A stretch of DNA of 64,000 nucleotides, from NCBI GenBank assembly GCA_964372215.1, contig CAYJQC010000024.1:2779-66778 (forward strand). Direction: 5' to 3'. Each line of letters starts with the position of its first letter. Position 1 is the stretch's first letter. The translations under genes were made by a program, and so were the position numbers. The notes under the pieces are model-generated. The model saw only the letters and a program-made list of their open reading frames with translations. It did no database searches and was not told the DNA's origin. Source of the stretch: an uncultured Rhodospirillaceae bacterium. Its GTDB lineage: Bacteria > Pseudomonadota > Alphaproteobacteria > Dongiales > Dongiaceae. Positions 18,109 through 54,773 of the stretch are shown here, piece after piece.

Positions 18109-19965
<1,857 letters not shown>

Positions 19966-21906: not shown

Positions 21907-22452
21907 TCACCCCGCCGCGACGAAATAGCCGCGCAGGATCAGGTGCTGTACCCCGGAGGGCGGGCCGGCCGGCCCCCCCATGGTGTCGAAGCAGAGCTGC
22001 GCCGCCGCGGTCATGGCGAAGCCCGAGGTCATCGCTTCGCTGGTGCCGCCCTCGCCCTCGGGGTTGAGCAGGATGGTCGACTCCACCATTCGCTCCTGGC
22101 GGTCGGGATCGGCGAGATTCTGGATCAGCAGGCGCAGCACGACCCGGGTTCCCGCGGCCGCCGCGCCATCGGGATGGTGATACAGCCAATCCATGTCGGT
22201 GATCACCAGCGCGCGCTCCGCCGGCATCGCGAACGGCTGCAGGGCGCCGGTGCCGTCCTGGAAAACCCGCCGGAAGCTGTGGCCGGCGGCGCCGAAGCCG
22301 CAGCCGGTATCGCCGGTCGCGGAATGCAGCACCACCTGCTCGCCCGGCGCCTGGCCCAGATGGGTCCGCGGCGCGCAAGCCGCCAGCGCGATGGCGACAA
22401 GGCCCAGGCATGCCGCCCCGCCAGCTCCGCGCACAAGGTTGACCCGGCCCAC
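21907..22452 (-). CDS. lipoprotein, unknown function
   Basis: 181 aa. Signal peptide plus lipobox (LVAIALAACAP). Its stop is 6 nt upstream of the EEP start (TGAGGTGCCATG). Confidence 0.6.
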   Translation of the reverse strand: MGRVNLVRGAGGAACLGLVAIALAACAPRTHLGQAPGEQVVLHSATGDTGCGFGAAGHSFRRVFQDGTGALQPFAMPAERALVITDMDWLYHHPDGAAAAGTRVVLRLLIQNLADPDRQERMVESTILLNPEGEGGTSEAMTSGFAMTAAAQLCFDTMGGPAGPPSGVQHLILRGYFVAAG

Positions 22453-28544: not shown

Positions 28545-31313
28545 ATGGAAGCGTTCTTCGTCCTGCTGGGACTGGTCGTCGTCTTCGGCCCGATCGCCCT
28601 GGCAATCGTCGCGCTGGTGCGCTCGAGCGCGGCGACGGCCGAGCTTGCGGTGCTGCGCACGCGCATCGCAGATCTGGAGAGCCAGCTCGTCCCGCCGGCG
28701 GCAGGCGGCAAGCCGGCGACCGCGCCGCTCTGGACGGCGGCAGCGTATGCGAGCGCTCCGGAAGCGCCGGCACCGGCCGAACCGCCAGAGGCCGAGACGG
28801 AATCCGCGGGCGAAGCCGCTCCGCCGCCGCTGGACGCGCCAGCGATGGCGCCGGCTGCGATCGCGGCGCCGCCCGCGGCGCCTGCGGAATCCATTTCCAG
28901 GGGCGGCTTCGAGAAGAGCTTCGCGTCGAAATGGCTGGTCTGGCTGGGCGCCGCCACCCTGGCGCTCGGCGGCACCTTCCTGGTCAAGCACTCGATCGAG
29001 CATGGCTGGCTCGGGCCGGCGGTGCGCGAGCTGGTCGGGCTGGCCTTCGGCCTGGCGCTGCTCGTCGGCGGCGAATGGCTGCGCCGGCGCCCGCTGGAGC
29101 GGGCGATCGCCGCGGTCCAGCCGGACTACGTGCCGCCGGCCCTGAGCGCCGCCGGTTTGTTCACGCTGTTCGCCTGCGCCTACACGTCCTACGCGCTGTA
29201 CGGCCTGATCGGGCCGCTGGTCGCCTTCGCCGCGCTGGCGGCGACCGCCTTCATCGCGGTCGGCCTGTCGCTGCTGCAGGGCCCGCCGGCGGCCCTGCTC
29301 GGCGTGGTCGGCGGCTTCGTGACCCCGATGCTGGTGGCCAGCACCGAACCGTCGGCCTGGACCCTGTTCCCCTATCTGCTGGCGCTCAGCGCCGCCGGCC
29401 TCGCGGTGCTGCGCTATCGCGCCTGGTGGTGGCTGGGCTACGCCGTGCTGGCCGGCGCCGCGTTCTGGCCGCTGATCTGGTTCGCCGAGGCGTGGGCGCC
29501 GGCCGACGCGCTGCCGCTCGGCCTCTATCTGCTCGCCCTCGCCGCCGGGTTCTGCCATTTCACCCGCGGCTTCAGCTTCGCCGGCCGGCCGTGGCAGGGC
29601 GCCGGCGACAAACTGTCCATCAACCATCCCGACGCGCTCACCTGGGCGACCGCGGGCGTCACCCTGTTGCTGTTCTTCGCCTATGTCCGCACCGGCGGCT
29701 ACGACCCGATCTCGCTGATCGCGCTGGGCGCGCTCTGCCTGCTCTACCTGTATGTCGGGCGGCGCCAGCCGGGGCTCGACGCCCTGGCGCCGGCGGCCGC
29801 GGTCCTGGTGCTGGCGCTGGCCGCGACCTGGCATCTGCCGAGCGTGCTGCAGCAGTTCGCGCCGGCCCATGCGTTGCGCCCGCCGCTGCTGCCGCCCGAG
29901 CTGGTCGACTTCGCCGTGGCGGCGGCCGGGTTCGGCGCCCTGTTCGGCGCCGCCGGCTTCGTGGCGTTGTGGGGCGCGCGGCGGCCCGGCCTGTGGGCCG
30001 GGGTTTCCGCCGGCACGCCGACGCTGCTGTTCACCATCGCCTATTGGCGCTTCGTCGATTTCGGCCTCGACCTCGGCTGGGCGGCGGCCGCATTGGCCCT
30101 GGCGGTCGTCACCATCCTCGCCGCGTCCCGCGTCGCGCGCTATCGCGGCCCGCCGGAACTCGAGATTCCCCTCGGGCTCTATGCCGCGGCGGTCACCGCC
30201 TTCGTGGCGCTCGGCGCCGCCATGACCCTGCAGCAGGCCTGGCTCACCGTCGCCTATGCCGCCCAGCTTCTGGCGCTGGCGCTGATCTACCAGCGCGTCA
30301 CGGTCGAGCCGCTGCGCTGGGTCGCGCTCGCCACCGCCGCGGTCGTGCTGGCCCGGCTGGTGCTCAACTGGAACGTCCTCGGCTATGACGGCGGCAGCCC
30401 GCCGGTGTTCGGCTGGGTGCTGTACGGCTATGGCCTGCCGGCGCTGATGTTCTTCGAGGCGGCGCGGCGCTTCCGCCGCCACGGCGACGACCTGCTGGTG
30501 GCGGTGCTCGAGGCCGGCTGGATCGCCTTCACCGTGCTGCTGGCCAGTCTCGAGATCCGCGTGCTGGTCAACGAGTCCGTGACCAGCCTGGACTACGAGC
30601 TGCTGGAGCAGAGCCTGCAGACCGCCGCCTGGCTCGCCATCGCCCATGCCCTGATGCAGGCCCATGCGCGGGCGCCGCGGCCGGTGACGCTGTGGGCCGC
30701 CCGCGCCCTGCTGTGCCTCTCGGCGCTGCAGGTGCTGCTGCTGCAGCTCGTGATCTTCAATCCGTTCTACGTGCACGTCTTCGTCGGCAGCTATCCCGTC
30801 CTCAACCTGCTGTTCCTGGCCTATGCGGTGCCGGCGATCTTCGCCTTCCTGAGCGTGCCGCTGCTGCGGCGCCAGGGCGCCGGCGGCGCCGCGCCAGTCG
30901 CCGCCGGGATCGGCTTCCTGCTGACCTTCGTCTATCTGTCGCTCGAGGTGCGGCGCGCCTTCCAGGGGCCGATGCTGTACTGGACGACGCCGTCCGACGC
31001 CGAACTCTACGCCTACTCCGCCGCCTGGCTGATCTACGCGCTGGTGCTGCTCGGACTCGCCATCCGGCTGCGCCGCGCCAGCCTGCGCTACGCGTCGCTG
31101 ATCGCCCTGTCGATCACCGTGCTCAAGGTGTTCCTGGTCGACACCGCCGATTTGACCGGGCTCTACCGGGTCGCCTCGTTCCTCGGCCTCGGCCTCTGCC
31201 TGATCGCCATCGGCTACATCTACCAGCGCTTCGTGTTCCCGGTCGGGCCGGGCCGCGCCGGACCGCCGCCGGCAACCGCCGCCGCCGCGGCGCCGACTCA
31301 GGAACAGGGATAG
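28545..31313 (+). CDS. DUF2339-type large polytopic membrane protein
   Basis: 922 aa. N-terminal TM, short coiled segment (LRTRIADLESQL), Pro/Ala-rich linker, then more than 20 hydrophobic segments. Confidence 0.75.
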   Translation: MEAFFVLLGLVVVFGPIALAIVALVRSSAATAELAVLRTRIADLESQLVPPAAGGKPATAPLWTAAAYASAPEAPAPAEPPEAETESAGEAAPPPLDAPAMAPAAIAAPPAAPAESISRGGFEKSFASKWLVWLGAATLALGGTFLVKHSIEHGWLGPAVRELVGLAFGLALLVGGEWLRRRPLERAIAAVQPDYVPPALSAAGLFTLFACAYTSYALYGLIGPLVAFAALAATAFIAVGLSLLQGPPAALLGVVGGFVTPMLVASTEPSAWTLFPYLLALSAAGLAVLRYRAWWWLGYAVLAGAAFWPLIWFAEAWAPADALPLGLYLLALAAGFCHFTRGFSFAGRPWQGAGDKLSINHPDALTWATAGVTLLLFFAYVRTGGYDPISLIALGALCLLYLYVGRRQPGLDALAPAAAVLVLALAATWHLPSVLQQFAPAHALRPPLLPPELVDFAVAAAGFGALFGAAGFVALWGARRPGLWAGVSAGTPTLLFTIAYWRFVDFGLDLGWAAAALALAVVTILAASRVARYRGPPELEIPLGLYAAAVTAFVALGAAMTLQQAWLTVAYAAQLLALALIYQRVTVEPLRWVALATAAVVLARLVLNWNVLGYDGGSPPVFGWVLYGYGLPALMFFEAARRFRRHGDDLLVAVLEAGWIAFTVLLASLEIRVLVNESVTSLDYELLEQSLQTAAWLAIAHALMQAHARAPRPVTLWAARALLCLSALQVLLLQLVIFNPFYVHVFVGSYPVLNLLFLAYAVPAIFAFLSVPLLRRQGAGGAAPVAAGIGFLLTFVYLSLEVRRAFQGPMLYWTTPSDAELYAYSAAWLIYALVLLGLAIRLRRASLRYASLIALSITVLKVFLVDTADLTGLYRVASFLGLGLCLIAIGYIYQRFVFPVGPGRAGPPPATAAAAAPTQEQG

Positions 31314-34960: not shown

Positions 34961-35977
34961 CTAGCCCAGGCGCTGCACGAACTCGGGATGGAAGCGGTGC
35001 AGCCGGTCGGTCGAGTAGTTGCTGCGAAACTCCCGCGGCGACTGGCCGAAATGGGAACGGAAGGTGCGCGAGAACACCTCGGCGCCGGAGAAGCCGCAGC
35101 CGAGCGCGATGTTCTGGATCGGCACGTCGCTGTAGAAAAGCAGGTTGCGGGCCGCCTGCAGGCGGATCTTCAGGTAGTAGCGCATCGGCGAATCGTTCAG
35201 CTTGCGACGGAACAGCCGTTCCAGCCGCCGCGCCGTCAGGCCGACCGCCTCGGCGATCTCCTCGGGCGGCAGCGGCTGCTCGAGATTGTCCTCCATCAGC
35301 CGGATCGCCTGGATCACCACCGGATCGAGCGACCCCATGGGCGAATCGAGCATCGCACGCTGCGGGTCGGTGCCGTGGCGGATGCGCTCGTGCACCATGC
35401 CGTTGGCGACGATCTGCGCCAGCATGGTGCCGTGATCGATGGCGATCAGATGCAGCATCATGTCGATCGCCGCGGTGCCGCCGGCGCAGGTGATGCGGCT
35501 GCGGTCAAACACGAAGATCTGCTCGACCACGTCGAGCTCCGGATAATGCTCGTGGAACACCGGCATCGCCTCCCAATGCAGGGTCATCCGGTAGCCGTCC
35601 ATCAGGCCGGCGGCGGCCAGCGCGAACAGCCCGGTATCGAGCGCCCCCAGCCGCACCCCGTGGCGGTCGAGCCGGCGCAGCCAGTTGAGCAGCCGGCGGT
35701 CGACATACTGGGTCGGCTGGTTGCCGGCGCAGACGATCAGCGTCGAGAAATCGGGCCGGCCCTCGGCCGGCGCGATCGGGCTGTCCGGCGTCACCATCAT
35801 GCCGTTGCCGGCCCGCACCGGCGCGCCGTCGACCGAGATCAGCCGCCAGTCGAACAGCCGGCTGCCGCTGTTCTGGTTGGCGATCCGCAGCGCCTCGGTC
35901 GCCGGGATCAGCGCGTAGATCGGAAACTCGGGGATCAGGAAGAAGCCGATCCGAGTCGGCGCCGGCGCGTCGGACAT
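34961..35977 (-). CDS. GlxA-family (DJ-1/PfpI + AraC HTH) transcriptional regulator
   Basis: 338 aa from ATG 35977 (GGAGGGGGAA upstream). N-terminal DJ-1-like domain, C-terminal AraC HTH (IALGCGFSGAEVFSRTFRSHFGQSP). Confidence 0.88.
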   Translation of the reverse strand: MSDAPAPTRIGFFLIPEFPIYALIPATEALRIANQNSGSRLFDWRLISVDGAPVRAGNGMMVTPDSPIAPAEGRPDFSTLIVCAGNQPTQYVDRRLLNWLRRLDRHGVRLGALDTGLFALAAAGLMDGYRMTLHWEAMPVFHEHYPELDVVEQIFVFDRSRITCAGGTAAIDMMLHLIAIDHGTMLAQIVANGMVHERIRHGTDPQRAMLDSPMGSLDPVVIQAIRLMEDNLEQPLPPEEIAEAVGLTARRLERLFRRKLNDSPMRYYLKIRLQAARNLLFYSDVPIQNIALGCGFSGAEVFSRTFRSHFGQSPREFRSNYSTDRLHRFHPEFVQRLG

Positions 35978-36300
35978 TTCCCCCTCCATTTCCGGTCGGC
36001 GGCGGGACCGGCCGCGCGCGGCGCCGCTGATTCCACCGCGCATCGTCCCCCATCATCAAAAATCTGTCGGCAAACGTCAAGTCATTGGCGACAAGCTCGC
36101 CGATAATTATTTCGCTCAGGGAGAGCTCTTTTTCGACGATGTCGGGAAAGCCCAAAGAATCGATAAGACGAGGGTGGCGGCACCCTAGAGCAGCACGCTT
36201 GGCGATTTGAGAACTATTCAGGCCACCGAAGTAATGGGCTTCGGGGCAACGGGGGCGCGCGGTCGCAGGCGGCCGACGGGTCCCGAACACGGGATCGCGC

Positions 36301-37357
36301 ATGGACTGGGACGGACTGCGGCGTCGGCTCGAGGGCTGCTACATCACGGTGCCGACCATGTTCGGGGACCCGGACCTGGCGCTCGACCTGGCGGCGATCC
36401 GGCGCCATGTCGGCTGGCTGCGGAGCCGCGGCATCGCCGCGGGCAACGCGGTGCTGCTGGGCGCCGGCGTCGCCCGCGGCGTATCGGCCCAGAGGGTGGG
36501 GGGGGGGGGGCCGGGGCTCGCGGGGGGGCACGGGGGTGCGGCGGCCGGGGGGCGCCGCGGGCGACTTCTCGGCCATGAGCTTCGAGGAGCGGGCGCAGGT
36601 GGCCGAGGCGGTGGTGGCGGCGGCCGACGGCGCGGTGCCGGTGGCGATGGGGGCGCAGACCACCAGCACGCGCGAGCTGGCGCGCCTGGCGCGGACCGCG
36701 CACGAGCTGGGCTGCAGCTTCATCCAGGTGTCCTGCCCGTTCTACTTCAGCCACACCGAGGGCGATTTCTACGACTACGTGGTGGCCGCGGCCGAGGCCG
36801 CGCCGATCGGCATCATCGTCTACAACACCTTCTGGACCTCGTCCGGCATCTCGCTCGCCATGGTCGACCGGCTGGCCGAGATCCCCAACGTGGTCGGGCT
36901 GAAATGGGCGACACCCCGGACCGACGCCATGGAGTTCGAGGATGTGGTCTCGCACTTCGCCGGGCGGCTCACCATCATCGACAACAACCTCCTGTTCGTG
37001 ATGAGCCACCTGATGGGGGCGCGCGGCTTCGAGGTGCATCTGTGCAACTACTGGCCGGAATGGGGCCTCAAGCTGCTCGATCGGCTGGCGGCCGGCGACT
37101 ATGCCGAGGTCCAGCGCATGATGGTCGCCGAGGCGATGCCCTTCTACAAGCTGTGGGTCGAGATCGAGAAGACCTACACCTCGGGCGACGGCTATCTCGA
37201 CAAGCTCTGCATGGAGCTGGTCGGGCTCGACTCCTCGCGCTGCCGGCCGCCGACCCGCGACGTGCGCGAACTCTACCGCGACAAGGCCAGAGAGATGCTC
37301 GTCAAGACCGGCGTGCCGGGCGTCATCGGCGCCGAGCGAGGCCTGCGCACCGGCTGA
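36301..37357 (+). pseudogene. NAL/DHDPS-family lyase gene interrupted by a frameshifting insertion
   Basis: The N-terminal 55 codons (MDWDGLRRRLEGCYITVPTMF...AVLLGA) are in frame 1. The remainder (GDFSAMSFEERAQV...VVGLKWAT...) is in frame 2. The break coincides with the G-tract insert at 36466-36556. Confidence 0.75.
36459..36557 (+). repeat. G-tract-rich insertion bounded by 8-bp direct repeats
   Basis: GGGCGCCG occurs at 36459-36466 and 36550-36557, 91 nt apart. The interior contains G13 (36498-36510) plus G4, G7, G5 and G6 runs. Confidence 0.7.
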
Positions 37358-37449
37358 CAGACGACCACGGCGACGGCGCCGCACGAAGCTTCGGGAGAAA
37401 CCGGAGTGAGATCTCGGATCCAGGGAGTCGTTTTCAAGGAGGAGACATC

Positions 37450-38793
37450 ATGAGCAAGCGACAGCGTACCAGCGGAGCCGGAACGGTCAGCCGGCGCAAG
37501 TTCCTGAAGGCGGCCAGCGCCACCGCGGCCTTCGCCGCCGCCACGCCCACGATCCTGCCGCGCAGCGTGTGGGCGGCCAGCGACATCGAGATCGTGCACT
37601 GGAGCTGGCTCGCCGCCTCGGACGGCGAAGTCTGGCAGAAGATGATCGACTCCTTCAACGAGGCCCACAAGGGCAAGGGCATGCAGATCCGCATGGAGCT
37701 GATCCCCGAGGAGCAGTACGTCACCAAGGTGCTCGCGGCGGTCGCCACCGGCCAGGCGCCGGATTTCGGCTGGGGCACCGCCGGCAAGGCCGCGCAGCTC
37801 GCCCGCGACGAGGTGCTGGTGCCGCTCGACGACGTCGCCGCCCAGGTCGGACTCGACGTCGCCGATTTCAGCGCCTACTCGATCAAGGCGTCGCGCTATC
37901 CGAAGTACGACAACAAGATGTTCATGGTCCCGATGGACCTGATGAGCCTGCAGCCGGAGATCAACCTCGACCACGTGGTCGAGGCCGGCCTCGACCCGGC
38001 GAGCCCGCCGAAGAACGGCGACGACCTGCTGGCCTGGGCCCAGGCCATGACCAAGCGCGACGGCGACACCGTCACCCGCTCGGGCATCATGATGACCGGC
38101 TCCGGCGTGCAGCCGACCGTCACCTGGGGCATCGTCGCCGAGCAGATGGGCTTCCAGCGGGCGAGCGACGACCTGAAGACCGCCTGCGTCAATCCCGACG
38201 CCGGCAAGGCGGCCATGCAATGGGTGCTCGACCTGTTCGACAAGCACAAGGTCTCGACCCGCGACGTGACCGACCGCTACAAGGCCTTCGGCACCGGCCA
38301 GGGCTCGATCTTCTGGACCGGGCCGTGGACCCTGAACGGCTATGTCAACCAGGGCCTCAACTTCGAGACCGCGATGTTCCCGAACATCGGCGGCAAGCAT
38401 GTCACCTATTTCGAGATGGGCGGGCTCGAGCTGTACCAGCAGCAGGATCAGGGCCGCTACGAAGCCACCATGCAGGCGGTGAAGTGGCTGTCCGACAACA
38501 GCTTCCTGTGGACCACCGTCGGCCGCGGCGCGTCGCCCCGGCAGTCGATCCTGGCACGCGACGACTACAAGACCGCCGGCAATCCGTGGAAGGTGCGCGG
38601 CGCCTTCATCGACGGCATGGAGTTCGCCACCGTCGGCGAGATTCCGGTGGTCAACGGCCCGAACTTCACCATCTATTCCGGCGGCAATTTCCTGGCCAAG
38701 ACGCTCGAAGGCGTGTGGGCCAAGCAGGTCTCGATCGACGACGCCATGACGATGCTGCAGCAGCAGTGGCAGGCCGATCTCGACGAAGGCTGA
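37450..38793 (+). CDS. ABC transporter substrate-binding protein (carbohydrate-type, family 1)
   Basis: 447 aa from ATG 37450 (AAGGAGGAG upstream). Tat-type signal SRRKFLKAASATAAFAAA. Confidence 0.88.
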   Translation: MSKRQRTSGAGTVSRRKFLKAASATAAFAAATPTILPRSVWAASDIEIVHWSWLAASDGEVWQKMIDSFNEAHKGKGMQIRMELIPEEQYVTKVLAAVATGQAPDFGWGTAGKAAQLARDEVLVPLDDVAAQVGLDVADFSAYSIKASRYPKYDNKMFMVPMDLMSLQPEINLDHVVEAGLDPASPPKNGDDLLAWAQAMTKRDGDTVTRSGIMMTGSGVQPTVTWGIVAEQMGFQRASDDLKTACVNPDAGKAAMQWVLDLFDKHKVSTRDVTDRYKAFGTGQGSIFWTGPWTLNGYVNQGLNFETAMFPNIGGKHVTYFEMGGLELYQQQDQGRYEATMQAVKWLSDNSFLWTTVGRGASPRQSILARDDYKTAGNPWKVRGAFIDGMEFATVGEIPVVNGPNFTIYSGGNFLAKTLEGVWAKQVSIDDAMTMLQQQWQADLDEG

Positions 38794-38896
38794 ACCTCGA
38801 CCGGACGGCGCGGCGCGTGCTGCTCCCTGGCATGCGTCGTGCCGTCCGACATTTCCAGGCAGGACGAAAGACGCCGCACCGGCGAGTCATGAACCG

Positions 38897-39817
38897 ATGA
38901 GCACGACCGCCATCCCGGGAAACGGCACGCCGGCCCGCCACGCCGCGCGGGCCGGCGAGGTCCGCGGCGTCGACCGCGTCGGCTACGTGTTCGTCGCCTT
39001 CTTCACCGTGCCGTTCTTCCTGTTCAACATCCTGCCGGTCCTGTTCGGCGCCTATGTCGCCTTCACCAAGTGGAGCATCATCGGCGCGCCCAAGTGGATC
39101 GGCTTCAAGAATTTCAGCGACGCCTTCGCCGACCACTGGGTCGCGATCGCCTTCAAGAACGTGCTGTTCTACGGCACCATCATCGTGCCGGGAGTCACCA
39201 TCCTGGGCCTGATGTTCGCCCTGTTCGTCAACCAGCGCTATCCGCTCTCCGGACTCGCGCGCACCCTGTTCTTCGCCCCCAACGTGGTCTCGGCGACGGT
39301 GATCGGCATGGTCTGGGTGTGGCTGCTCGACACCCAGTTCGGCCTGATCAACCACTATCTCGGCTTCATCGGGCTGGGGCCGTTCCCGTGGCTGACCTCG
39401 GCCGACTGGTCGCTGATCGGCGTCAGCATCGCCTCGATCTGGTGGGATCTGGGCCTCGCCTTCGTGCTGTTCCTGGCGGCGCTGCAGGACATCCCGGCCG
39501 AGGTCAAGGAAGCGGCGACGGTCGACGGCGCCAACCGGCTGCAGCGCTTCTGGTTCGTGACCCTGCCCCATCTGCGCCCGGTCATCAGCATGGTGGTGAC
39601 GCTGCAGCTCATTTCGACGCTCAGGATCTTCAGCCAGGTCTATGTGATGACCAATGGCGGGCCGGCCAGCGCATCGTCCTCGCCGATCTTCTACATCTAC
39701 AGCGTCGCCATCATCCGCTATCTCTACGGCTACGCCTCGGCGATCGGCATGATGCTGTTCGTGGTGATCCTGGCGGTCACCGTGGTGCAGCGCCTGATCA
39801 TCCGGGAGCGCGGCTGA
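38897..39817 (+). CDS. carbohydrate ABC transporter permease (MalF-like)
   Basis: 306 aa, six TM segments, EAA-loop region (AALQDIPAEVKEAATVDGAN). Confidence 0.88.
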   Translation: MSTTAIPGNGTPARHAARAGEVRGVDRVGYVFVAFFTVPFFLFNILPVLFGAYVAFTKWSIIGAPKWIGFKNFSDAFADHWVAIAFKNVLFYGTIIVPGVTILGLMFALFVNQRYPLSGLARTLFFAPNVVSATVIGMVWVWLLDTQFGLINHYLGFIGLGPFPWLTSADWSLIGVSIASIWWDLGLAFVLFLAALQDIPAEVKEAATVDGANRLQRFWFVTLPHLRPVISMVVTLQLISTLRIFSQVYVMTNGGPASASSSPIFYIYSVAIIRYLYGYASAIGMMLFVVILAVTVVQRLIIRERG

Positions 39818-40701
39818 TGTCAATGCCGGCCATGATGCTGGAACGCCTGCGCGGCGCGCTCGAGGCGCGCCGCATGGAACCGATCGACGTGCCGATCTGG
39901 CTGATCGGCATGGGCATCGCCGTGCTGTGGGCGCTGCCGTTCGTCTGGATGGTCTCGACGTCCTTCAAGTTTCCGGAAGACGTGATGACCGCCGACATCG
40001 AGTGGCTGCCGCACCGCGTCACCCTGGCGAACTACGCCAAGGTGTTCGAGTACCCGGTGCTGCGCTGGGGGCTCAACAGCATCATCCAGGCGACCGCGTC
40101 GACCGGGCTCTGCGTGCTGTTCGGGGCGATGGCGGGCTACGCCCTTGCCCGGCTGCAGTTCCCGGGCCGCGCCGCGCTGTTCGGCATCTTCCTGGCGTCG
40201 CTGATGATCCCGACCGAGGTCTCGGTCATCCCCATGCTGCTCGGGTTCATCAAGATCGGCTGGGCCAGCAGCTACCAGGCGCTGATCCTGCCGACCATCG
40301 GCAACGTGTTCAGCGTCTACATCTTCCGCCAGTTCTTCCTGAGCTTCCCGCCGGAGCTCGAGGAGGCCGCGAAGATGGACGGCGCCGGGCCATTCCGCCT
40401 GTTCTTCCTGATCGCGCTGCCGCTGGCGCGCGCGCCGATGATCGCCGCCACGGTCATCATCTTCACGCTCAACTGGAACAACTTCCTGTGGCCGCTGCTG
40501 GTCACCTTCGACGAGCGCATGAAGACCCTGCCCGTCGGCATCGCCGCCTTCACGCCGGTGGTCGGGACCCACACCCAGCTCGAGGGCTACAGCGTCGCCA
40601 TGGCCGGCATCACCGTGCTGTCGGTGCCGAGCCTGGTGCTGTTCTTCCTGCTGCAGCGCTATTTCATCCACGGCATCTCCCAGGGAAGCGTCAAGCAGTG
40701 A
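39817..40701 (+). CDS. carbohydrate ABC transporter permease (MalG-like)
   Basis: 294 aa. ATG overlaps the preceding TGA by 1 nt. EAA loop FPPELEEAAKMDGAGPF. Confidence 0.88.
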   Translation: MSMPAMMLERLRGALEARRMEPIDVPIWLIGMGIAVLWALPFVWMVSTSFKFPEDVMTADIEWLPHRVTLANYAKVFEYPVLRWGLNSIIQATASTGLCVLFGAMAGYALARLQFPGRAALFGIFLASLMIPTEVSVIPMLLGFIKIGWASSYQALILPTIGNVFSVYIFRQFFLSFPPELEEAAKMDGAGPFRLFFLIALPLARAPMIAATVIIFTLNWNNFLWPLLVTFDERMKTLPVGIAAFTPVVGTHTQLEGYSVAMAGITVLSVPSLVLFFLLQRYFIHGISQGSVKQ

Positions 40702-42167
40702 GCGCATCGACCACCAAGGCAAGCGGCGCCGAGCTCGGCATTCCCGAGGGGCTGTTCATCGGCAACGAGTTCCGCCCGGCGGCCGACGGCCGGGTGTTCG
40801 AGACCATCGACCCCAGCAGCGTGACGCCGTTCGCCGAGGTGGCGCGCGGCGGCGCGACCGACGTCGACGCGGCGGTACGGGCGGCGCAGGCCGCCATGCA
40901 CGGGCCCTGGCGCGAGCTGGCCCCGGCGGAGCGCGGCCGGCTGCTGTTCCGCCTGGCCGATGCGATCGAGGCGAAATGCGACGCCATCGCCCGGGTCGAG
41001 ACCCTGGACGTGGGCAAGCCGCTCAAGGAGTCGAGGGGCGATGTCGGCGGGGTGTGCGCCACCATCCGCTACAACGCCGGCGCCGCCGACAAGATGGAAG
41101 GCGCCACCGTGCCGCTCGGGCGCGGCGTCGTCGACTACACGGTGCTGGAGCCGCTCGGCGTCACCGCGCATATTGTTCCCTGGAACTATCCCCTCGGCAT
41201 GGTGGCGCGCTCGGTCGCGCCGGCGCTCACCGCCGGCTGCACGGTCGTGATCAAGCCGGCCGAGCAGTCGCCGCTGACCGCGCTGATGTTCGCCGATACA
41301 TGCCGCGAGGTCGGTTTCCCCCCGGGCGTGGTCAACGTGGTGACCGGCTTCGGCGAGGAGGCGGGGGCGGCGCTGACCGCCCATCCGCTGGTGCGCGGCA
41401 TCACCTTCACCGGCTCGGTCGAGACCGGGCGCAAGGTCTACCTGTCGGCCGCCCAGGGCATCAAGCCGACCGTGCTCGAGCTCGGCGGCAAGAACCCGAT
41501 GATCGTTCTGAAGGACGCCGATCTCGACCGCGCCGCCTTCGACGCCGTCGACGGCGCCTTCGGCAACAGCGGCCAGGTCTGCTCGTCCTCCTCGCGCCTG
41601 CTGCTGCACCGCGCGATCCGCGACGCGTTCCTGGAGCGCTTCGCCGCCCACGCGCGCAAGCTGACGGTCGGCCCCGGCATCGACGACCGCGATCTCGGCC
41701 CGCTGGTCTCCGACGAGCAGTACGGCAAGGTGATGGGTTATCTCGAGGCCGGCCGCGCCGCGGGCGCGCGGGTGCGGCTCGGCGGCGGCCGGCCCGAGGG
41801 GCTGAACCGCGGCTACTTCGTCGCGCCGACCATCTTCGACCGGGTCGACCCGGCGAGCAGCATCGCGCGCGAGGAGATCTTCGGCCCGGTCGCGGTCGCC
41901 ATCGACTTCGACGACGAGAGCGAGGCGGTCGCCATGGCCAACGGCCTCGGCTATGGCCTGGTCGCCGGGGTCTACAGCCAGGACATCTCGCGGGCGCTCG
42001 GCCTCGCCCGCGAGATCGAGGCCGGATCGGTCTGGGTCAACGGCTGGTTCATCGGCGGCGTGCAGGCGCCGACCGGCGGCATCAAGGACAGCGGCATCGG
42101 GCGCGAGCGCGGCCTGCCCGGCATCCGCAACTACCTGAGCATCAAGAACGTCGGAATTCGCCTGTGA
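40698..42167 (+). CDS. NAD(P)-dependent aldehyde dehydrogenase
   Basis: 489 aa from GTG 40698 (GTGA overlap with the permease stop). Catalytic motifs ELGGKNP and GQVCSSSSR. Confidence 0.9.
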   Translation: MSASTTKASGAELGIPEGLFIGNEFRPAADGRVFETIDPSSVTPFAEVARGGATDVDAAVRAAQAAMHGPWRELAPAERGRLLFRLADAIEAKCDAIARVETLDVGKPLKESRGDVGGVCATIRYNAGAADKMEGATVPLGRGVVDYTVLEPLGVTAHIVPWNYPLGMVARSVAPALTAGCTVVIKPAEQSPLTALMFADTCREVGFPPGVVNVVTGFGEEAGAALTAHPLVRGITFTGSVETGRKVYLSAAQGIKPTVLELGGKNPMIVLKDADLDRAAFDAVDGAFGNSGQVCSSSSRLLLHRAIRDAFLERFAAHARKLTVGPGIDDRDLGPLVSDEQYGKVMGYLEAGRAAGARVRLGGGRPEGLNRGYFVAPTIFDRVDPASSIAREEIFGPVAVAIDFDDESEAVAMANGLGYGLVAGVYSQDISRALGLAREIEAGSVWVNGWFIGGVQAPTGGIKDSGIGRERGLPGIRNYLSIKNVGIRL

Positions 42168-42231
42168 CCCGTCGCCCGGTTCACGGGTGCGAACTCGCCG
42201 GCGGCCACTGCTGAGAGGAAAGAAGCTGAGC

Positions 42232-43440
42232 ATGTCGATCATCAAGAACGTCGAGCACTTCACCATCTTCAAGCATCCCGAGCATTGCGTGAACCAGATC
42301 GCGACGCGTTGCCTGAAGAATGGCGACCTGGTCGCCGTGTTCAACGAGGAGCGGTTCCCCTATCACCACGACAGCGGCCAGACCCTGATGGTGCGCTCCA
42401 AGGACGGCGGCAAGACATGGAGCGCCCCCAAGATCGTGCTGCCCTGGAGCCAGACCCAGGGCAACTGGGACTGCGGCATCTGCGAGCTGAGCGACGGCAC
42501 GCTGATCGTCAATCTCACCATCACCGGCTTCTTCAAGCGCGGCATCAAGCCGGCGCAGCCGTCCTGGAGCAGCCATCCCATGACCAAGGAATGGGGCGAC
42601 TGGACCTGGGCCTACAAGACCCAGGGCTGGCTCGGCACCTATGTGGTGAAGTCGAAGGACGGCGGCGAGACCTGGTCGGAGCCGATCCCGGTCAATGTCC
42701 GGCCGCTCAAGCATGGCGGTTGCCGGCTCGGCTGCTGGGAGCTGCCGAACGGCTCGATCCTGATGGGCCTCTACGGCCGCATCCACGGCTACGAGGAGGA
42801 GGGCGAGGGCGAGAGCACCCGCTCGGCGCTGATGCGCTCCGACGACGGCGGTGACAACTGGGAGTACTACTCGACCCTGGCCTACGATCCCGCCAGCATC
42901 ATCGACTACGAGGAGCCCGGGCTGGTCCGCCTGAAGGACGGGCGGCTGGTCTGCTTCATGCGCACCCATGTGAACCCGAGCAGCGACGCCAGGAACATGG
43001 TGATGGTGGTGTCCGAGGATGACGGGTTCTCCTGGACGCCGCCGAAATGGACCAACATCTGGGGCTATCCGCCGGAGCTGATCGCGCTGCAGGACGGCCG
43101 CTACCTGATGATCTACGGCTATCGCCGGCCGCCCTACGGCACCCGCGGCATCATCTCGGAGGACGGCGTCACCTGGGACGTGAAGAACGAGTTCGTGATC
43201 CGCGAGGGCGGCGTTCCCGGCAAGACCGTGACCGACACGCCCGGTTCGAGCCGCATGACGCCGGAATCGGGCAAGGTCGCCGGCGGCGGCGTCAACTGGC
43301 ACCATCCCGGCGTCTACCAGCATATCGGCTATCCCAGCGTCGCCCAGATGCCCGACGGCACCGTCGTCGGCTCGTACCACGAATGGAGCGACGATCCGAA
43401 GCCGCTGCAATACGTGCTCTGCACAAGGTTCCGGGTCTGA
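42232..43440 (+). CDS. BNR/Asp-box repeat, sialidase-fold protein (no signal peptide)
   Basis: 402 aa from ATG 42232. Five Asp-boxes: SKDGGKTW, SKDGGETW, SDDGGDNW, SEDDGFSW, SEDGVTW. Confidence 0.85.
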   Translation: MSIIKNVEHFTIFKHPEHCVNQIATRCLKNGDLVAVFNEERFPYHHDSGQTLMVRSKDGGKTWSAPKIVLPWSQTQGNWDCGICELSDGTLIVNLTITGFFKRGIKPAQPSWSSHPMTKEWGDWTWAYKTQGWLGTYVVKSKDGGETWSEPIPVNVRPLKHGGCRLGCWELPNGSILMGLYGRIHGYEEEGEGESTRSALMRSDDGGDNWEYYSTLAYDPASIIDYEEPGLVRLKDGRLVCFMRTHVNPSSDARNMVMVVSEDDGFSWTPPKWTNIWGYPPELIALQDGRYLMIYGYRRPPYGTRGIISEDGVTWDVKNEFVIREGGVPGKTVTDTPGSSRMTPESGKVAGGGVNWHHPGVYQHIGYPSVAQMPDGTVVGSYHEWSDDPKPLQYVLCTRFRV

Positions 43441-43467
43441 GGCGCAGGGTCGGGGAGCGCAACGGGG

Positions 43468-44613
43468 ATGGGCGTGATCGGGCAGGCGCGGCCGGCCGAG
43501 ATGCTGGAGCATCGCGTGCTGTACCGCGACGATCACGCCTATTGCGCCCATCCGCACCTGGCGGTCAGCGCCGCCGGCACCTGGCTGATGGTGTTCAACC
43601 GCACGGTCCGGCGCGATGTCATCATCCATCCGCCGCAGGATCCCGAGTACCGCAACCTGCTGATGCGCTCCGACGACGAGGGCCGCAGCTGGGGGCCGGC
43701 CGCGGTGGTGCCGGGCTATGGCTGGGGCGGCGTCGAATGCGCCGGGCTGACGCCCCTGAGGTCCGGCCGGGTGCTGCTGAACCAGTGGCGCTTCCGCTGG
43801 TATCCGCTGCCGCTGGCCGAGAAGATGGGACCGGGCGCGGAGCTGGTCGGGCCCGAGCGGCTGATGGGCAAGGCCGCCATGGCGCGCGAGCTCGGGCCCT
43901 GGGCGCCGGGCCCGGCGGAGATCGCCGCGCGGTTTCCCTGGGCGCGCGGCGACGGCGAGACCTGGGTGCATCTGTCCGACGACGACGGCTACAGCTTTCC
44001 CCAGTCGCGCCGCATCGACACCGCGCCGTTCAGCGGCGGCTACGGCATGCGCGGCGCGATCGAGCTCGGCGACGGCACGCTCCTGCTGCCGCTCTCCGAC
44101 GTGCCGAACTACCGGACGGTGTTCGTCCTGCGCTCGACCGACGGCGGCGAGAGCTGGTCGCCGGCGACGCCGATCGCCGCGGGCCCGGGCCACGAGTTCG
44201 AGGAGCCGGCGCCGCTCCTGCTGCCGTCGGGCCGCATCCTCGTGATGCTGCGCGACAACGGCACCCGCATCCTGCACCAGGTCCATTCCGACGACGGCGG
44301 CACGAACTGGAGTACGCCCCGCCCGACCGGGATCGCGGAATACCCGGCCGATCTCCTGAGGCTCGCCGACAGCCGCCTCGCCTGCGTCGCCGGGCGGCGC
44401 CAGAAGCCCTTCGGCATCCGCATCATCCTGTCCGAGGACGGCGGCGAGACCTGGGATACCGAACATCCGGTGGTGGTGCGCGACGATCTGCCGAACCAGG
44501 ACCTGGGGTATCCTGCGGCGGCCTGCCGCGCCGATGGCAGCCTGCTGGTCGCCTATTACGGCCAGGACCGGGACGGCGTCACCGCGATCCAGTCGAGCGT
44601 GGTACGGCTGTGA
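43468..44613 (+). CDS. BNR/Asp-box repeat, sialidase-fold protein, second paralogue (no signal peptide)
   Basis: 381 aa. Asp-boxes SDDEGRSW, SDDDGYSF, STDGGESW, SDDGGTNW, SEDGGETW. Confidence 0.85.
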   Translation: MGVIGQARPAEMLEHRVLYRDDHAYCAHPHLAVSAAGTWLMVFNRTVRRDVIIHPPQDPEYRNLLMRSDDEGRSWGPAAVVPGYGWGGVECAGLTPLRSGRVLLNQWRFRWYPLPLAEKMGPGAELVGPERLMGKAAMARELGPWAPGPAEIAARFPWARGDGETWVHLSDDDGYSFPQSRRIDTAPFSGGYGMRGAIELGDGTLLLPLSDVPNYRTVFVLRSTDGGESWSPATPIAAGPGHEFEEPAPLLLPSGRILVMLRDNGTRILHQVHSDDGGTNWSTPRPTGIAEYPADLLRLADSRLACVAGRRQKPFGIRIILSEDGGETWDTEHPVVVRDDLPNQDLGYPAAACRADGSLLVAYYGQDRDGVTAIQSSVVRL

Positions 44614-44665
44614 GCGTGGCGAAGGAAACGCCGATGAAGCCGATGCAAACGACAGGGACCGGTGG

Positions 44666-45766
<1,101 letters not shown>

Positions 45767-45794
45767 CGCTACGCGCTCGCCGCCGGCCGCCCGG

Positions 45795-47240
45795 CTATTC
45801 CGCGACGCGCTGCCCGTGCGGGGTCGGCACGATGTTGTGATTCAGCCGAAACAGATTGCCGGGATCGTGGCGCCGCTTGATCTCTGCCAGCCGCGCGTGA
45901 TTCGGCCCATACACCGCGGCCACCCGATCGGGTTCATCATCCGGCATGAAGTTGATATAGGCGCTGCCCGTCGCGAAGGGCGCGGCGTTCTTGAACAATT
46001 CCCGCGCCCAGGCCTTGCCCGCAGCGTCCTCGGCCGGTTCACGCCAGCGCCCATGGGCGTTCATGATGAAATGCGACTTGCGCTGCGGATAGGCGGTCGC
46101 CGCCACCGGAATCCGGCTCATCGCCCCGCCGACATGGGCGATGAAGATTTCGCACTCGGGCGACGGCAGTGCGCGCACTGACGCCAGCATGGCGTCGATG
46201 GCGCCGTCGGAGAGCTCGATGAAGTCATGGCTCTTCCAGTAGTTGCGCGCCCCCGCCGTCAGCAGCGGATCGAAAGCCGTCTGCCAGCCGGTGAAGGGAT
46301 GGGGCGACACCACGTCGGCGATCGGCTTGCCCAGGGCGCGCAGTTCGGCCACCGCCAGCTCGCCTTGCGTCATGTCACCGCACCAGCACAGCGCGAACAC
46401 CAGCACCTCCCGCCCATGCCATTCGGGCGGGATGAAGGGCAAGGGCGGCGCCTTGCGCATGACCACCCAGCAGGTGAGCTCGTCCGACGCCGCCGCGACA
46501 ATCCGCCGGTAGTCGCGCAGCAGCTCCCTTGCGTTGTCCAGCGGATGGACCACGAGGCCGGACAGCACCGTCGGGTCGAGGCGGTTGAGCCGGAACTCGA
46601 ACGAGGTCGCCACCCCGAAATTGCCGCCGCCGCCGCGAATCGCCCAGAACAGATCGCTGTTCCGGGCGGCACTGAGATGCAGCAGCTCGCCCTCGGCCGT
46701 CACCAGATCGGCGGAAAGCAGATTATCGATGGTCATGCCGAACTTGCGCGTGGTCCAGCCGAAGCCGCCGCCGAGCGTGAGGCCGGCGATTCCGGTCGTG
46801 GAGTTGATGCCCGACGGCACCACGTAGCCGAAGGACTGGGTCTCCTTGTCCATGTCGGCCAGGGTGGCCCCGGGCTCGATCCGCAGGCGCTGGTTGGCCG
46901 TGTCGACACGAACCGAGCGCATGAGCGAGAGATCGAGCATGACCCCACCGTCGCACACCGCGCTCCCGGCGATGTTGTGGCCGCCGCCGCGCACGGCGAG
47001 CAGGGCGCCGTGCATGCGGGCGAAGCGGACGGTGCAGACCACGTCCGCCGGGCCGGCGGCGCGAACGACCAAACCGGGACGACGATCGATCATCGCGTTC
47101 CAGATGCGGCGCGCGTCATCATAGCCGGGCGCGCCGGCCAGGCACAGCGGCCCGCGCAGCGCCTGACGCAAGCCGTCGACCGCGTCGTCGGAAATCGTCA
47201 CGCTGCGCCCGTCGAGTCCCGTCAACTTGATCCCAGTCAT
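45795..47240 (-). CDS. FAD-linked oxidase (PCMH/berberine-bridge-enzyme-like)
   Basis: 481 aa from ATG 47240 (GAAGGAGAG upstream). VRGGGHNIAG FAD-binding motif and a BBE-like C-terminus (DPGNLFRLNHNI). Confidence 0.85.
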   Translation of the reverse strand: MTGIKLTGLDGRSVTISDDAVDGLRQALRGPLCLAGAPGYDDARRIWNAMIDRRPGLVVRAAGPADVVCTVRFARMHGALLAVRGGGHNIAGSAVCDGGVMLDLSLMRSVRVDTANQRLRIEPGATLADMDKETQSFGYVVPSGINSTTGIAGLTLGGGFGWTTRKFGMTIDNLLSADLVTAEGELLHLSAARNSDLFWAIRGGGGNFGVATSFEFRLNRLDPTVLSGLVVHPLDNARELLRDYRRIVAAASDELTCWVVMRKAPPLPFIPPEWHGREVLVFALCWCGDMTQGELAVAELRALGKPIADVVSPHPFTGWQTAFDPLLTAGARNYWKSHDFIELSDGAIDAMLASVRALPSPECEIFIAHVGGAMSRIPVAATAYPQRKSHFIMNAHGRWREPAEDAAGKAWARELFKNAAPFATGSAYINFMPDDEPDRVAAVYGPNHARLAEIKRRHDPGNLFRLNHNIVPTPHGQRVAE

Positions 47241-47566
47241 CGCGCTCTCCTTCAGGTTCGTCGCGGATTGCGACGCGTGGCGGTGATGCTTGCGGCGTTC
47301 TGGCGGAGCCGACAAGTTCAGGATCTGAACCGGCCAACGCCGCGATCCGACGCCGGCGCCAAGCCAACCCGACCTGAGGCGCCGCGATCCTGGAGCGGGC
47401 CGGCCATGGGCCGGATGCACGATTTCGGCTCTGGCGCCGACCCCGTGCCGGCGGCGCAGGAATCCGCGGCAAACTGCCGCTTCAGTTTCTGAACTGGCGC
47501 GGACGGCCTCGCGGCAATAGCATCTGGGCAGTCTGGCGATGCGGTTCGGCCATCAGGGAGGCGTTC

Positions 47567-53849: not shown

Positions 53850-54773
53850 GTGACGACAGCCAAGGCCGGCAGCCAGGCGATTTCCGGCGTCTATCCCATG
53901 CTGTTCGCGTTCTTCGACGCCGCCGAGCGGCTCGACCGCGGCGCCATGCGGCGCCAGGTCGATGCGCTGGTCGCCGCCGGCGTCCACGGCATCGCCGCGC
54001 TCGGCCTCGCCACCGAGTGCAACAAGCTCAGCGTCAACGAGAAGCGCCTGCTGCTCGACTGGGTGGCCGAGGATCTTGGCGGCCGCCTGCCGCTCAGCGT
54101 GACCGTCTCGGAACCCGACGTCACCGGCCAGATCGAGTTCGTCAAGGCCGCCGCCGGCGCCGGCGCCGGCTGGGTGGTGCTGCAGCCGCCGCCGGTCAAG
54201 GGCGCGCCCGAGTCCGAGCTGCTGCGCTTCTTCGGCGCGGTCGCCGACGCGGCATCTGTCCCGGTCGGATTGCAGATCGCGCCGGAGTATCTCGGAATCG
54301 GACTGTCCGCCGCGACCCTGAAGGAGCTCGGCCGCCGCCATCCGAACGTGCGGATCCTCAAGGTGGAGATGGCGCCGATCGACGTCGCCGAGCTGATCGA
54401 GGCGACCGACGGAGCCTTCGAGGTGTTCAACGGGCGCGCCGGGCTGGAGCTGCCGGACTGCGTGCGCGCCGGCTGCGTCGGCATGATTCCCGGTGCCGAA
54501 TGCGCCGACGTGCTGACTTCCGTCTTCAACGGCATGCGCGCCGGCAGCGCCGAGGCGGTCGCCCGGGCGGAGCGCGACTATCTCGGTGTCGCGCCCCTCA
54601 TCACCTTCTCCATTTCGTCGATGGACTGCTTTCTGCTCTACGCGAAGCGGGTGGCGGCCCGCCGGTTCGGCATTGCCGCCGAGCTGGCCCTGCCGCGCCG
54701 GCCGTTCACGCCGGCCAGCGGTTTCGGCCTGTCGCTCGCGGAACGGCATTCGGCGACCCTCGGACCGCTCTAG
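53850..54773 (+). CDS. dihydrodipicolinate synthase/NAL-family protein
   Basis: 307 aa from GTG 53850 (GGGAGGGGG upstream). Family-like LGLATECNKLSVNEKR and Lys context VRILKVEM. Confidence 0.8.
   Translation: MTTAKAGSQAISGVYPMLFAFFDAAERLDRGAMRRQVDALVAAGVHGIAALGLATECNKLSVNEKRLLLDWVAEDLGGRLPLSVTVSEPDVTGQIEFVKAAAGAGAGWVVLQPPPVKGAPESELLRFFGAVADAASVPVGLQIAPEYLGIGLSAATLKELGRRHPNVRILKVEMAPIDVAELIEATDGAFEVFNGRAGLELPDCVRAGCVGMIPGAECADVLTSVFNGMRAGSAEAVARAERDYLGVAPLITFSISSMDCFLLYAKRVAARRFGIAAELALPRRPFTPASGFGLSLAERHSATLGPL

Follow-up and report, generated by a model that had tools for sequence, protein, structure and literature searches.

The 85 surplus bases found at approximately 36461–36545 of the window, the whole 64-kb stretch of DNA analyzed here, are almost certainly a false tandem duplication generated by short-read assembly, with no biological insertion behind it. 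The G-rich "insertion" recorded at this site is not a real feature. It interrupts a gene of the DHDPS/NAL family on the forward strand, to which all coordinates given below refer. The insert is missing elsewhere in the same organism, it consists of two degraded copies of the native sequence, its layout recurs with an N-gap in a sister assembly, and error clusters recur at the same place in other contigs. The matter is one of data quality and not of biology, as a public contig carries a false frameshift.

In the window, an exact 8-bp direct repeat, GGGCGCCG, is located at 36459–36466 and again at 36550–36557, and the segment between the two copies is ordered G3-T-G13-CC-G4-CTCGC-G7-CAC-G5..G6. 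This segment contains 6 G-tracts of at least 3 bases, among which G13 (36498–36510) and G7 (36522–36528) are the sole G runs of 7 or more bases in the 64 kb. The GC content is 69.4% for the whole window and locally reaches 0.89 in the segment region, with a GC skew of +0.43. The gene that starts from the ATG at 36301 drops out of frame at the segment and resumes one frame over, continuing to a stop at 37357. The repeats, the order of the G-tracts, and the change of frame are all as described in the sequence-only reading that first drew attention to this locus. Outside the segment, two genuine parts of the gene were delimited. The 5′ part (36301–36460) comprises codons 1–53, ending in NAVLL, and the first G of the next codon; it agrees base for base with L003 and L010, two clean sister contigs, and its translation fits the orthologue consensus. 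The 3′ part (36566–37357) extends from DFSAMSFEER to the stop, includes the Schiff-base lysine context VVGLKWAT, and is identical in all sister contigs.

The native sequence of this site was obtained from sister assemblies. At least 10 sister assemblies of this organism, all from one ENA series, together contribute 20 clean contigs (SPAdes-style names, stated coverage 11–53×) on which an intact 323-aa protein (P0121) is encoded. To the left and to the right of the segment, these contigs have the same DNA as the window. In the native DNA, CTGCTGG is followed by CCGGCGGCGCCGCCGGCGAC, which is translated into LLAGGAAGDF, and the sequence across the site reads GGTGCTGCTGG CCGGCGGCGCCGCCGGCGACTTC. 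This native DNA indicates that the surplus in the window is 85 nt (approximately 36461–36545) and not the 91 nt proposed earlier, whose excision drops two conserved codons, and that the native protein has 323 aa. The best protein match, P0001, is encoded on a contig that also lacks the segment, on which CTGG is followed by CCGGCGGCGCCGC at the junction. The flanking DNA of this contig is identical to that of the window, so it was recognized as a sister assembly of the same organism; immediately upstream of the junction, it has 17 clustered substitutions of its own. Contig L001 matched the window over 21 kb save for three short error clusters, and a look-up of the neighboring solute-binding protein gave 14 contigs of the same organism.

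Searching with the restored protein as query retrieved thousands of relatives of approximately 316–323 aa. In an alignment of 17 sequences, xLAGGAAGDF was present in all 16 aligned orthologues, and the positions from the second Leu through the Phe were invariant or nearly so across the alignment, where present. The same motif was detected with constant spacing in at least 70 of 80 genome loci. The best orthologue in this genome scan showed 83% protein identity and came from a MAG contig with the label Candidatus Binatia, closely followed by Dongiaceae MAGs. The closest genomes were mostly Dongiaceae and other alphaproteobacterial MAGs, at 66–83% protein identity. No same-species genome was found in the scan, and it was therefore used solely to show that the orthologues are without the insertion.

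By its sequence, the native gene is an ordinary, intact 323-aa member of the DHDPS/NAL (PF00701) class I aldolase family. The 321-aa product obtained by deleting 91 nt matched PF00701 with E = 2.7e-28 and 99 bits (cut-off 22.1) over profile positions 14–286 of 289, and 115 solved DHDPS/NAL chains were retrieved at E < 1e-5. The native stretch vllaGGaaGDfsamsfEE aligned gap-free to sivaVGttGEastlsmEE of the solved DHDPS 3pud, and nvvGlKwat aligned to nivGiKdat of the same chain, with the lysine being invariant in 17 sequences. The profile, the orthologues, and the 3pud alignment are all in agreement with the family, the place of the motif, and the lysine context (VVGLKWAT) assigned earlier. The restored 321-aa protein is likewise a continuous PF00701 member as had been claimed, whereas its loop spacing is not normal, since LLGAAGDF is shorter by 2 residues than the native LLAGGAAGDF. 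The GxxG(D/E) loop, the YN motif, and the Schiff-base lysine are common to this protein and the PF00701 class I aldolases. Unlike the family, it has GAAGD in place of GTTGE, an Asp for a Glu, and belongs to an uncharacterised subfamily with 66–83% identity among alphaproteobacterial MAGs.

It may be considered that the segment encodes a real lineage-specific loop of 30 residues rich in Gly and Arg, in which one surplus G of G13 is a homopolymer error. Indeed, a run of G12 opens a 351-aa frame that matches PF00701 with E = 9.6e-27. The Pfam match of this product, however, begins only after the insert (residues 83–333), and the loop would split the GxxGD motif. Extra residues at the junction were present in 0 of 72 motif-bearing genome loci (80 loci in total), 0 of 16 orthologues, and 0 of 20 same-organism contigs, so that the in-frame segment once envisaged for the orthologues was not found in any of them. 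The probability of such a loop is regarded as negligible.

The false duplication was then traced to its two sources in the native flanks. The left half (36461–36505) is a degraded duplicate of window 36546–36590, corresponding to an error-laden read-through of the native CCGGCGGCGCCGCCGGCGACTTCTCGGCCATGAGC that truly follows 36460. When window 36461–36511 was compared with the native continuation, 35 of 51 positions were identical, ungapped and in register; this was the top value among the approximately 128,000 offsets scanned over the two strands, where the runner-up had 31 matches (mean 16.3, sd 3.4). In this half, 10 of the 16 errors are changes to G. The right half (36506–36545) reproduces, in degraded form, the native upstream window 36421–36460 (CGGAGCCGCGGCATCGCCGCGGGCAACGCGGTGCTGCTGG), as revealed by a match at a shift of 85 nt. 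When window 36506–36565 was compared at this shift with the native sequence from window 36421 onwards, 41 of 60 positions agreed; 14 of the 19 errors are changes to G, and 18 of the 19 equal the next native base. In a gapped test of this half, an equally good score was reached by only 4 of 3974 random chunks (p ~0.001). Both degraded copies differ from the native sequence at 31–32% of positions. The G13 run (36498–36510) is a smear located at the meeting point of the two degraded contig ends, where A and C of the native GAGGAGCGGGCG are changed to G, and it is missing in 20 sister contigs. The relationship to the flanks became visible only through ungapped offset scans combined with the native sister-contig sequence. 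When insert and flanks were compared by strict local alignment (match 2, mismatch −3), nothing was detected (score 24 versus a shuffle mean of 25.7), and a G-overwrite test, in which the non-G bases of the insert were matched against the window, gave no signal.

At 36545–36562, the window carries its copy of a perfect 18-nt palindrome composed only of G and C, GCCGGCGGCGCCGCCGGC, which was found in the native-corrected window and encodes the AGGAAG portion of the GxxGD motif. The copy in the window retains residual miscalls at 36545, 36547, 36550, and 36559, and at this position reads GCCGCGGGC, in contrast to GCCGCCGGC in L003 and L004. The layout recurs on a sister scaffold (L002), in which the degraded downstream copy, a stretch of 10 N, and the degraded upstream copy follow one another at the same place. 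Judging from its sequence, this scaffold appears to be the unclosed form of the mis-join present in the window. The 8-bp "direct repeat" is accounted for as a by-product of the false duplication, being a remnant of the GGCGCCG region that was duplicated.

These observations bear directly on the proposal that the gene was inactivated by a small mobile insertion (a MITE or IS remnant with an 8-bp target-site duplication) or by a G-quadruplex regulatory insert. The exact 8-bp flanking repeat, the restoration of the frame upon removal of 3n+1 nt, and the 6 G-tracts of at least 3 bases fit this proposal. Yet the 36-nt core of the segment had no second copy in the 64-kb window when up to 3 mismatches were allowed (0 expected), the segment had no copy among the JGI metagenome contigs searched, and further copies of the interior, which the earlier reading had suggested seeking, were thus not obtained from either source. 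The empty site predicted by this proposal is LLGAAGDF, as opposed to the real LLAGGAAGDF, and the interior was derived from degraded flanks and not from foreign DNA. A mobile element was excluded on account of these three points: no other copies, the wrong empty site, and a flank-derived interior. The segment is also missing in 20 contigs of the same organism, and comparable G-tracts do not occur in the native sequence. The G-quadruplex reading was rejected as well; we put the chance of either kind of insert at next to nil. A repeat-mediated duplication scar, which had been offered as another origin, was not supported either, since the segment is missing in the same 20 contigs and is made up of two error-ridden copies of adjacent native sequence. 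In contrast, the assembly artefact that had been named as a serious alternative was borne out, with its boundaries corrected and its mechanism made more specific.

The false duplication in the window is one example of a reproducible failure at the palindrome. Contigs L004 and L005 stop within approximately 60 nt of it, and L006 stops approximately 150 nt downstream. The 90% cluster of P0001 contains ten protein variants, and their differences from the clean L003 translation are confined to residues 22–78, with residues 79–323 being invariant across 11 variants. Nine further protein variants occur on one contig each, as compared with 20 contigs for the clean form. At the DNA level, the error clusters share one start point and spread away from it: those running upstream cover gene positions 79–174 (L001, L100, and L101), while those running downstream cover positions 166–227 (L098 and L099). 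Their origin is the palindrome itself, at gene positions 160–177. In total, at least 12 sister-assembly contigs exhibited breaks, N-gaps, or error clusters, all within approximately 150 nt of the palindrome, and the other 245 residues of the protein were invariant.

A diversity-generating retroelement was tried as a source of the variation in residues 22–78 and was rejected, as the changes are not adenine-specific, invariant residues of the catalytic loop are hit, each variant is present on one contig, and contig breaks and N-gaps accompany them. Coverage was also examined as a sole cause. The error variants were found at a stated coverage of 7.7–13.6× and also at 37× (L101), and the clean contigs range over 10.9–52.7×. 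The error cluster in L101 at 37× indicates that low coverage alone is insufficient for these failures, and coverage as the sole cause was rejected.

A second failure hotspot was identified at 37965–38047, in the gene of the solute-binding protein, which contains three perfect palindromes of 18–20 nt. The window is clean there, and junk sequence is present in sister assemblies: in nine of them (L007–L009 and L011–L016), junk or frameshifts start at the palindrome, and the damage takes the form of poly-C, poly-G, and poly-T smears, frameshifts, and split genes. The native-corrected 64-kb window contains six perfect palindromes of at least 18 nt, one at the first site and three at this hotspot. 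Four of the six longest palindromes of the window coincide with failure sites in the sister assemblies; the other long GC palindromes are located at 18904–18921 and 54153–54170. The first site has 82% GC over 100 nt, which is the 99th percentile, and its GGC/GCC density lies at the 98.5th percentile. For the 100 native nt of this site, the single-strand fold was predicted at −30.9 kcal/mol, a high stability in absolute terms, yet with z = −0.03 against shuffles of the same composition; the predicted fold of the second hotspot was more stable than its shuffles (z = −2.86). As the fold at the first site is no more stable than those of the shuffles, the hairpin argument rests on the palindrome itself.

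We infer the platform, the phasing mechanism, and the exact assembler step of the join as follows. Reads crossing the 18-nt palindrome, which lies in a GGC-rich stretch of approximately 82% GC, would lose phase, and approximately 40–90 bases past the palindrome would be miscalled as a G/C-saturated, homopolymer-like sequence. The left contig would be extended beyond the site by such bad reads, giving the degraded downstream copy, and the right contig would likewise be extended leftwards beyond the site, giving the degraded upstream copy. The two ends, no longer resembling each other, would then not be overlapped but joined end to end in the poly-G smear common to both. The outcome would be a frameshifted pseudo-insertion in the contig, with the gene remaining intact in the organism.

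This scheme was compared with the sequence-specific errors of Illumina sequencing (Nakamura et al. 2011, PMC3141275). The reported triggers of such errors are inverted repeats and GGC, and the errors appear as consecutive miscalls from a fixed position (PMC3141275). Here, similarly, a palindrome and dense GGC are located at the exact origin of all error clusters, and in independent assemblies the miscalls set in at the same place in the genome. In high-GC genomes, G↔C and A/T to G/C conversions dominate the errors (PMC3141275, Table 6), and the error spectrum at the present site is also mostly G↔C and A/T to G/C. Miscalls have been described to echo the previous base owing to phasing lag (PMC3141275), and the miscalls in the present contigs tend to copy a neighboring base, the preferred side switching from one side of the site to the other. 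The counts of echoes of the previous and the next base were 18 and 8 for the downstream pieces and 15 and 40 for the upstream pieces (Fisher p = 6e-4), a signal taken as supportive only, since chance alone would produce part of these echoes in GC-rich DNA. Gaps in assemblies and contigs that seem to branch were also reported to follow from these errors (PMC3141275), similar to the gaps and the apparent branching of contigs found at the palindrome. Unlike the published cases, the errors here escaped filtering and are built into consensus contigs, where they give a false 85-nt duplication, and the error stretches extend to approximately 90 nt, whereas 40-nt regions were analyzed in that paper. 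The end product also resembles the pseudo-duplications known from scaffold gaps and gap closure, in which overlapping contig ends are laid end to end and the native segment appears twice. The sister scaffold with 10 N between the ends (L002) corresponds to the intermediate state of such a scaffold gap, while the join in the window differs from it in having no N, the ends merging in a poly-G run.

The two-color (NextSeq/NovaSeq) chemistry offers another route to a G-rich artefact, in which "dark cycle" calls of G produce poly-G tails that are then assembled. The window shares G-enrichment and a long G run with such tails: 24 of its 35 miscalls are changes to G, in addition to the G13 run, and the upstream clusters of L100 and L101 are nearly all C>G or T>G. 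On the other hand, the failures start at one genomic position in many independent assemblies and spread both ways. Tails without signal would start at a read position and not at a genome position, so that the fixed origin counts against this route. Moreover, both hotspots lie on long palindromes, and the sister contigs L002, L014, and L015 show poly-C, poly-T, and poly-A smears together with G>C swaps, unlike pure poly-G tails; the junk is anchored to a genomic palindrome in both directions, with C, T, and A smears. Dark cycles as the main cause instead of dephasing at the palindrome are hence considered unlikely, with a minor though appreciable chance. Dark-cycle calls and palindrome dephasing are not mutually exclusive, and the former may contribute. 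The artefact part of the dark-cycle explanation raised in the sequence-only reading was upheld. Its part as the main cause fits less well: poly-C, poly-T, and poly-G smears and G↔C swaps flank the palindrome on either side in the sister assemblies, a pattern closer to sequence-specific phasing failure than to calls of G from mere loss of signal.

Long perfect palindromes can show instability in vivo. From this general knowledge, together with the many recorded variants of residues 22–78, one could argue that the sampled strain truly carries the segment, either as a palindrome-driven tandem duplication or as a truly hypervariable stretch. Against this, the two copies are diverged from the native sequence by 31–32%, while 21 kb of flanks are essentially identical between samples, a pattern for which there is no realistic mutation process. 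Each variant is present on a single contig versus 20 for the clean form, the variants wreck residues that are invariant in the family, including GDF, and the same layout occurs with an N-gap in a sister scaffold, with contig ends at the same place. Identical behavior was observed at the second palindrome in a different gene, which points to the method and not to the gene. A real segment in this strain is accordingly judged very improbable. It is also hardly credible that the GC palindrome is unstable in cells through hairpin or cruciform slippage to the extent that rare real alleles, including a duplication like that of the window, are partly behind the heterogeneity.

The assembly error has a practical consequence for annotation. 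With this frameshift in place, the gene, which heads a catabolic operon of the sugar-acid type, would be annotated as a pseudogene or as a truncated product of 260 aa or 316 aa; a look-up of the exact 316-aa product gave no record. The combination of a long GC-only palindrome, a G/C smear on either side, and a pseudo-duplication of the flanks provides a signature by which "exotic G-rich insertions" of this kind could be discarded automatically in a genome scan. The operon further encodes a solute-binding protein, two permeases, an aldehyde dehydrogenase, two BNR_2 proteins, and an ABC ATPase, and a gene for an AraC/DJ-1-type regulator is located upstream of the operon on the opposite strand. 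The ABC transporter of this operon is of the sugar type.

A second sequencing-failure hotspot was located at 37965–38047 in the solute-binding-protein gene. This interval contains three perfect palindromes of 18–20 nt (CCTCGACCACGTGGTCGAGG, GGTCGAGGCCGGCCTCGACC, and TGGCCTGGGCCCAGGCCA). The window sequence itself is clean here, and contigs from nine sister assemblies of the same organism (L007–L009 and L011–L016) carry junk with homopolymer smears, frameshifts, or split genes, the onset of which coincides with a palindrome.

In the aldolase palindrome, the window and L001, the sister contig that otherwise matches it closely, read GCCGCGGGC at position 36559, versus GCCGCCGGC in L003 and L004, two contigs that are clean at this site. 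This C>G change is synonymous (Ala) and breaks the native palindrome. It is most likely a residual miscall rather than a single-nucleotide polymorphism. L001 departs from the window at seven clustered positions and one single position (28774–28861 and 37982), which are probably miscalls of L001 itself, since in seven of the eight cases the L001 base is G or C.

Perfect palindromes made of G and C only, each 18 nt long, also occur at 18904–18921 (CGGCCGGGCGCCCGGCCG) and 54153–54170 (GCCGGCGCCGGCGCCGGC); these two are candidates for the type of sequencing failure seen at the hotspots. Both are spanned by long ORFs, and no obvious junk was seen at either position in the window sequence. Another palindrome, GGGCCGGCCGGCCC, lies at 21962–21979 within a minus-strand ORF, in which it is followed by the sole C7 run of the window; the window sequence gave no sign of a frame break at this palindrome or run.

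The gene content of the surrounding locus (34961–47300) was taken from the L001 gene table. An AraC/DJ-1-PfpI regulator gene is located upstream of the aldolase gene on the opposite strand. Next come the genes for the DHDPS-family aldolase and an SBP_bac_8 binding protein, then those for two permeases and an aldehyde dehydrogenase, and finally those for two BNR_2 (sialidase-fold) proteins and an ABC ATPase. This arrangement looks like an uncharacterised operon for the uptake and catabolism of a sugar acid or a sialic-acid-like compound.

The organism of the window was absent among the species-representative genomes of the genome collection. The best orthologue of the aldolase in that collection, with 83% protein identity, came from a metagenome-assembled genome (MAG) labelled Candidatus Binatia, and orthologues in Dongiaceae MAGs exhibited 79–82% identity. 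The truncated 260-aa product of the frameshifted aldolase gene (P0125) is also carried by an NCBI/ENA contig.
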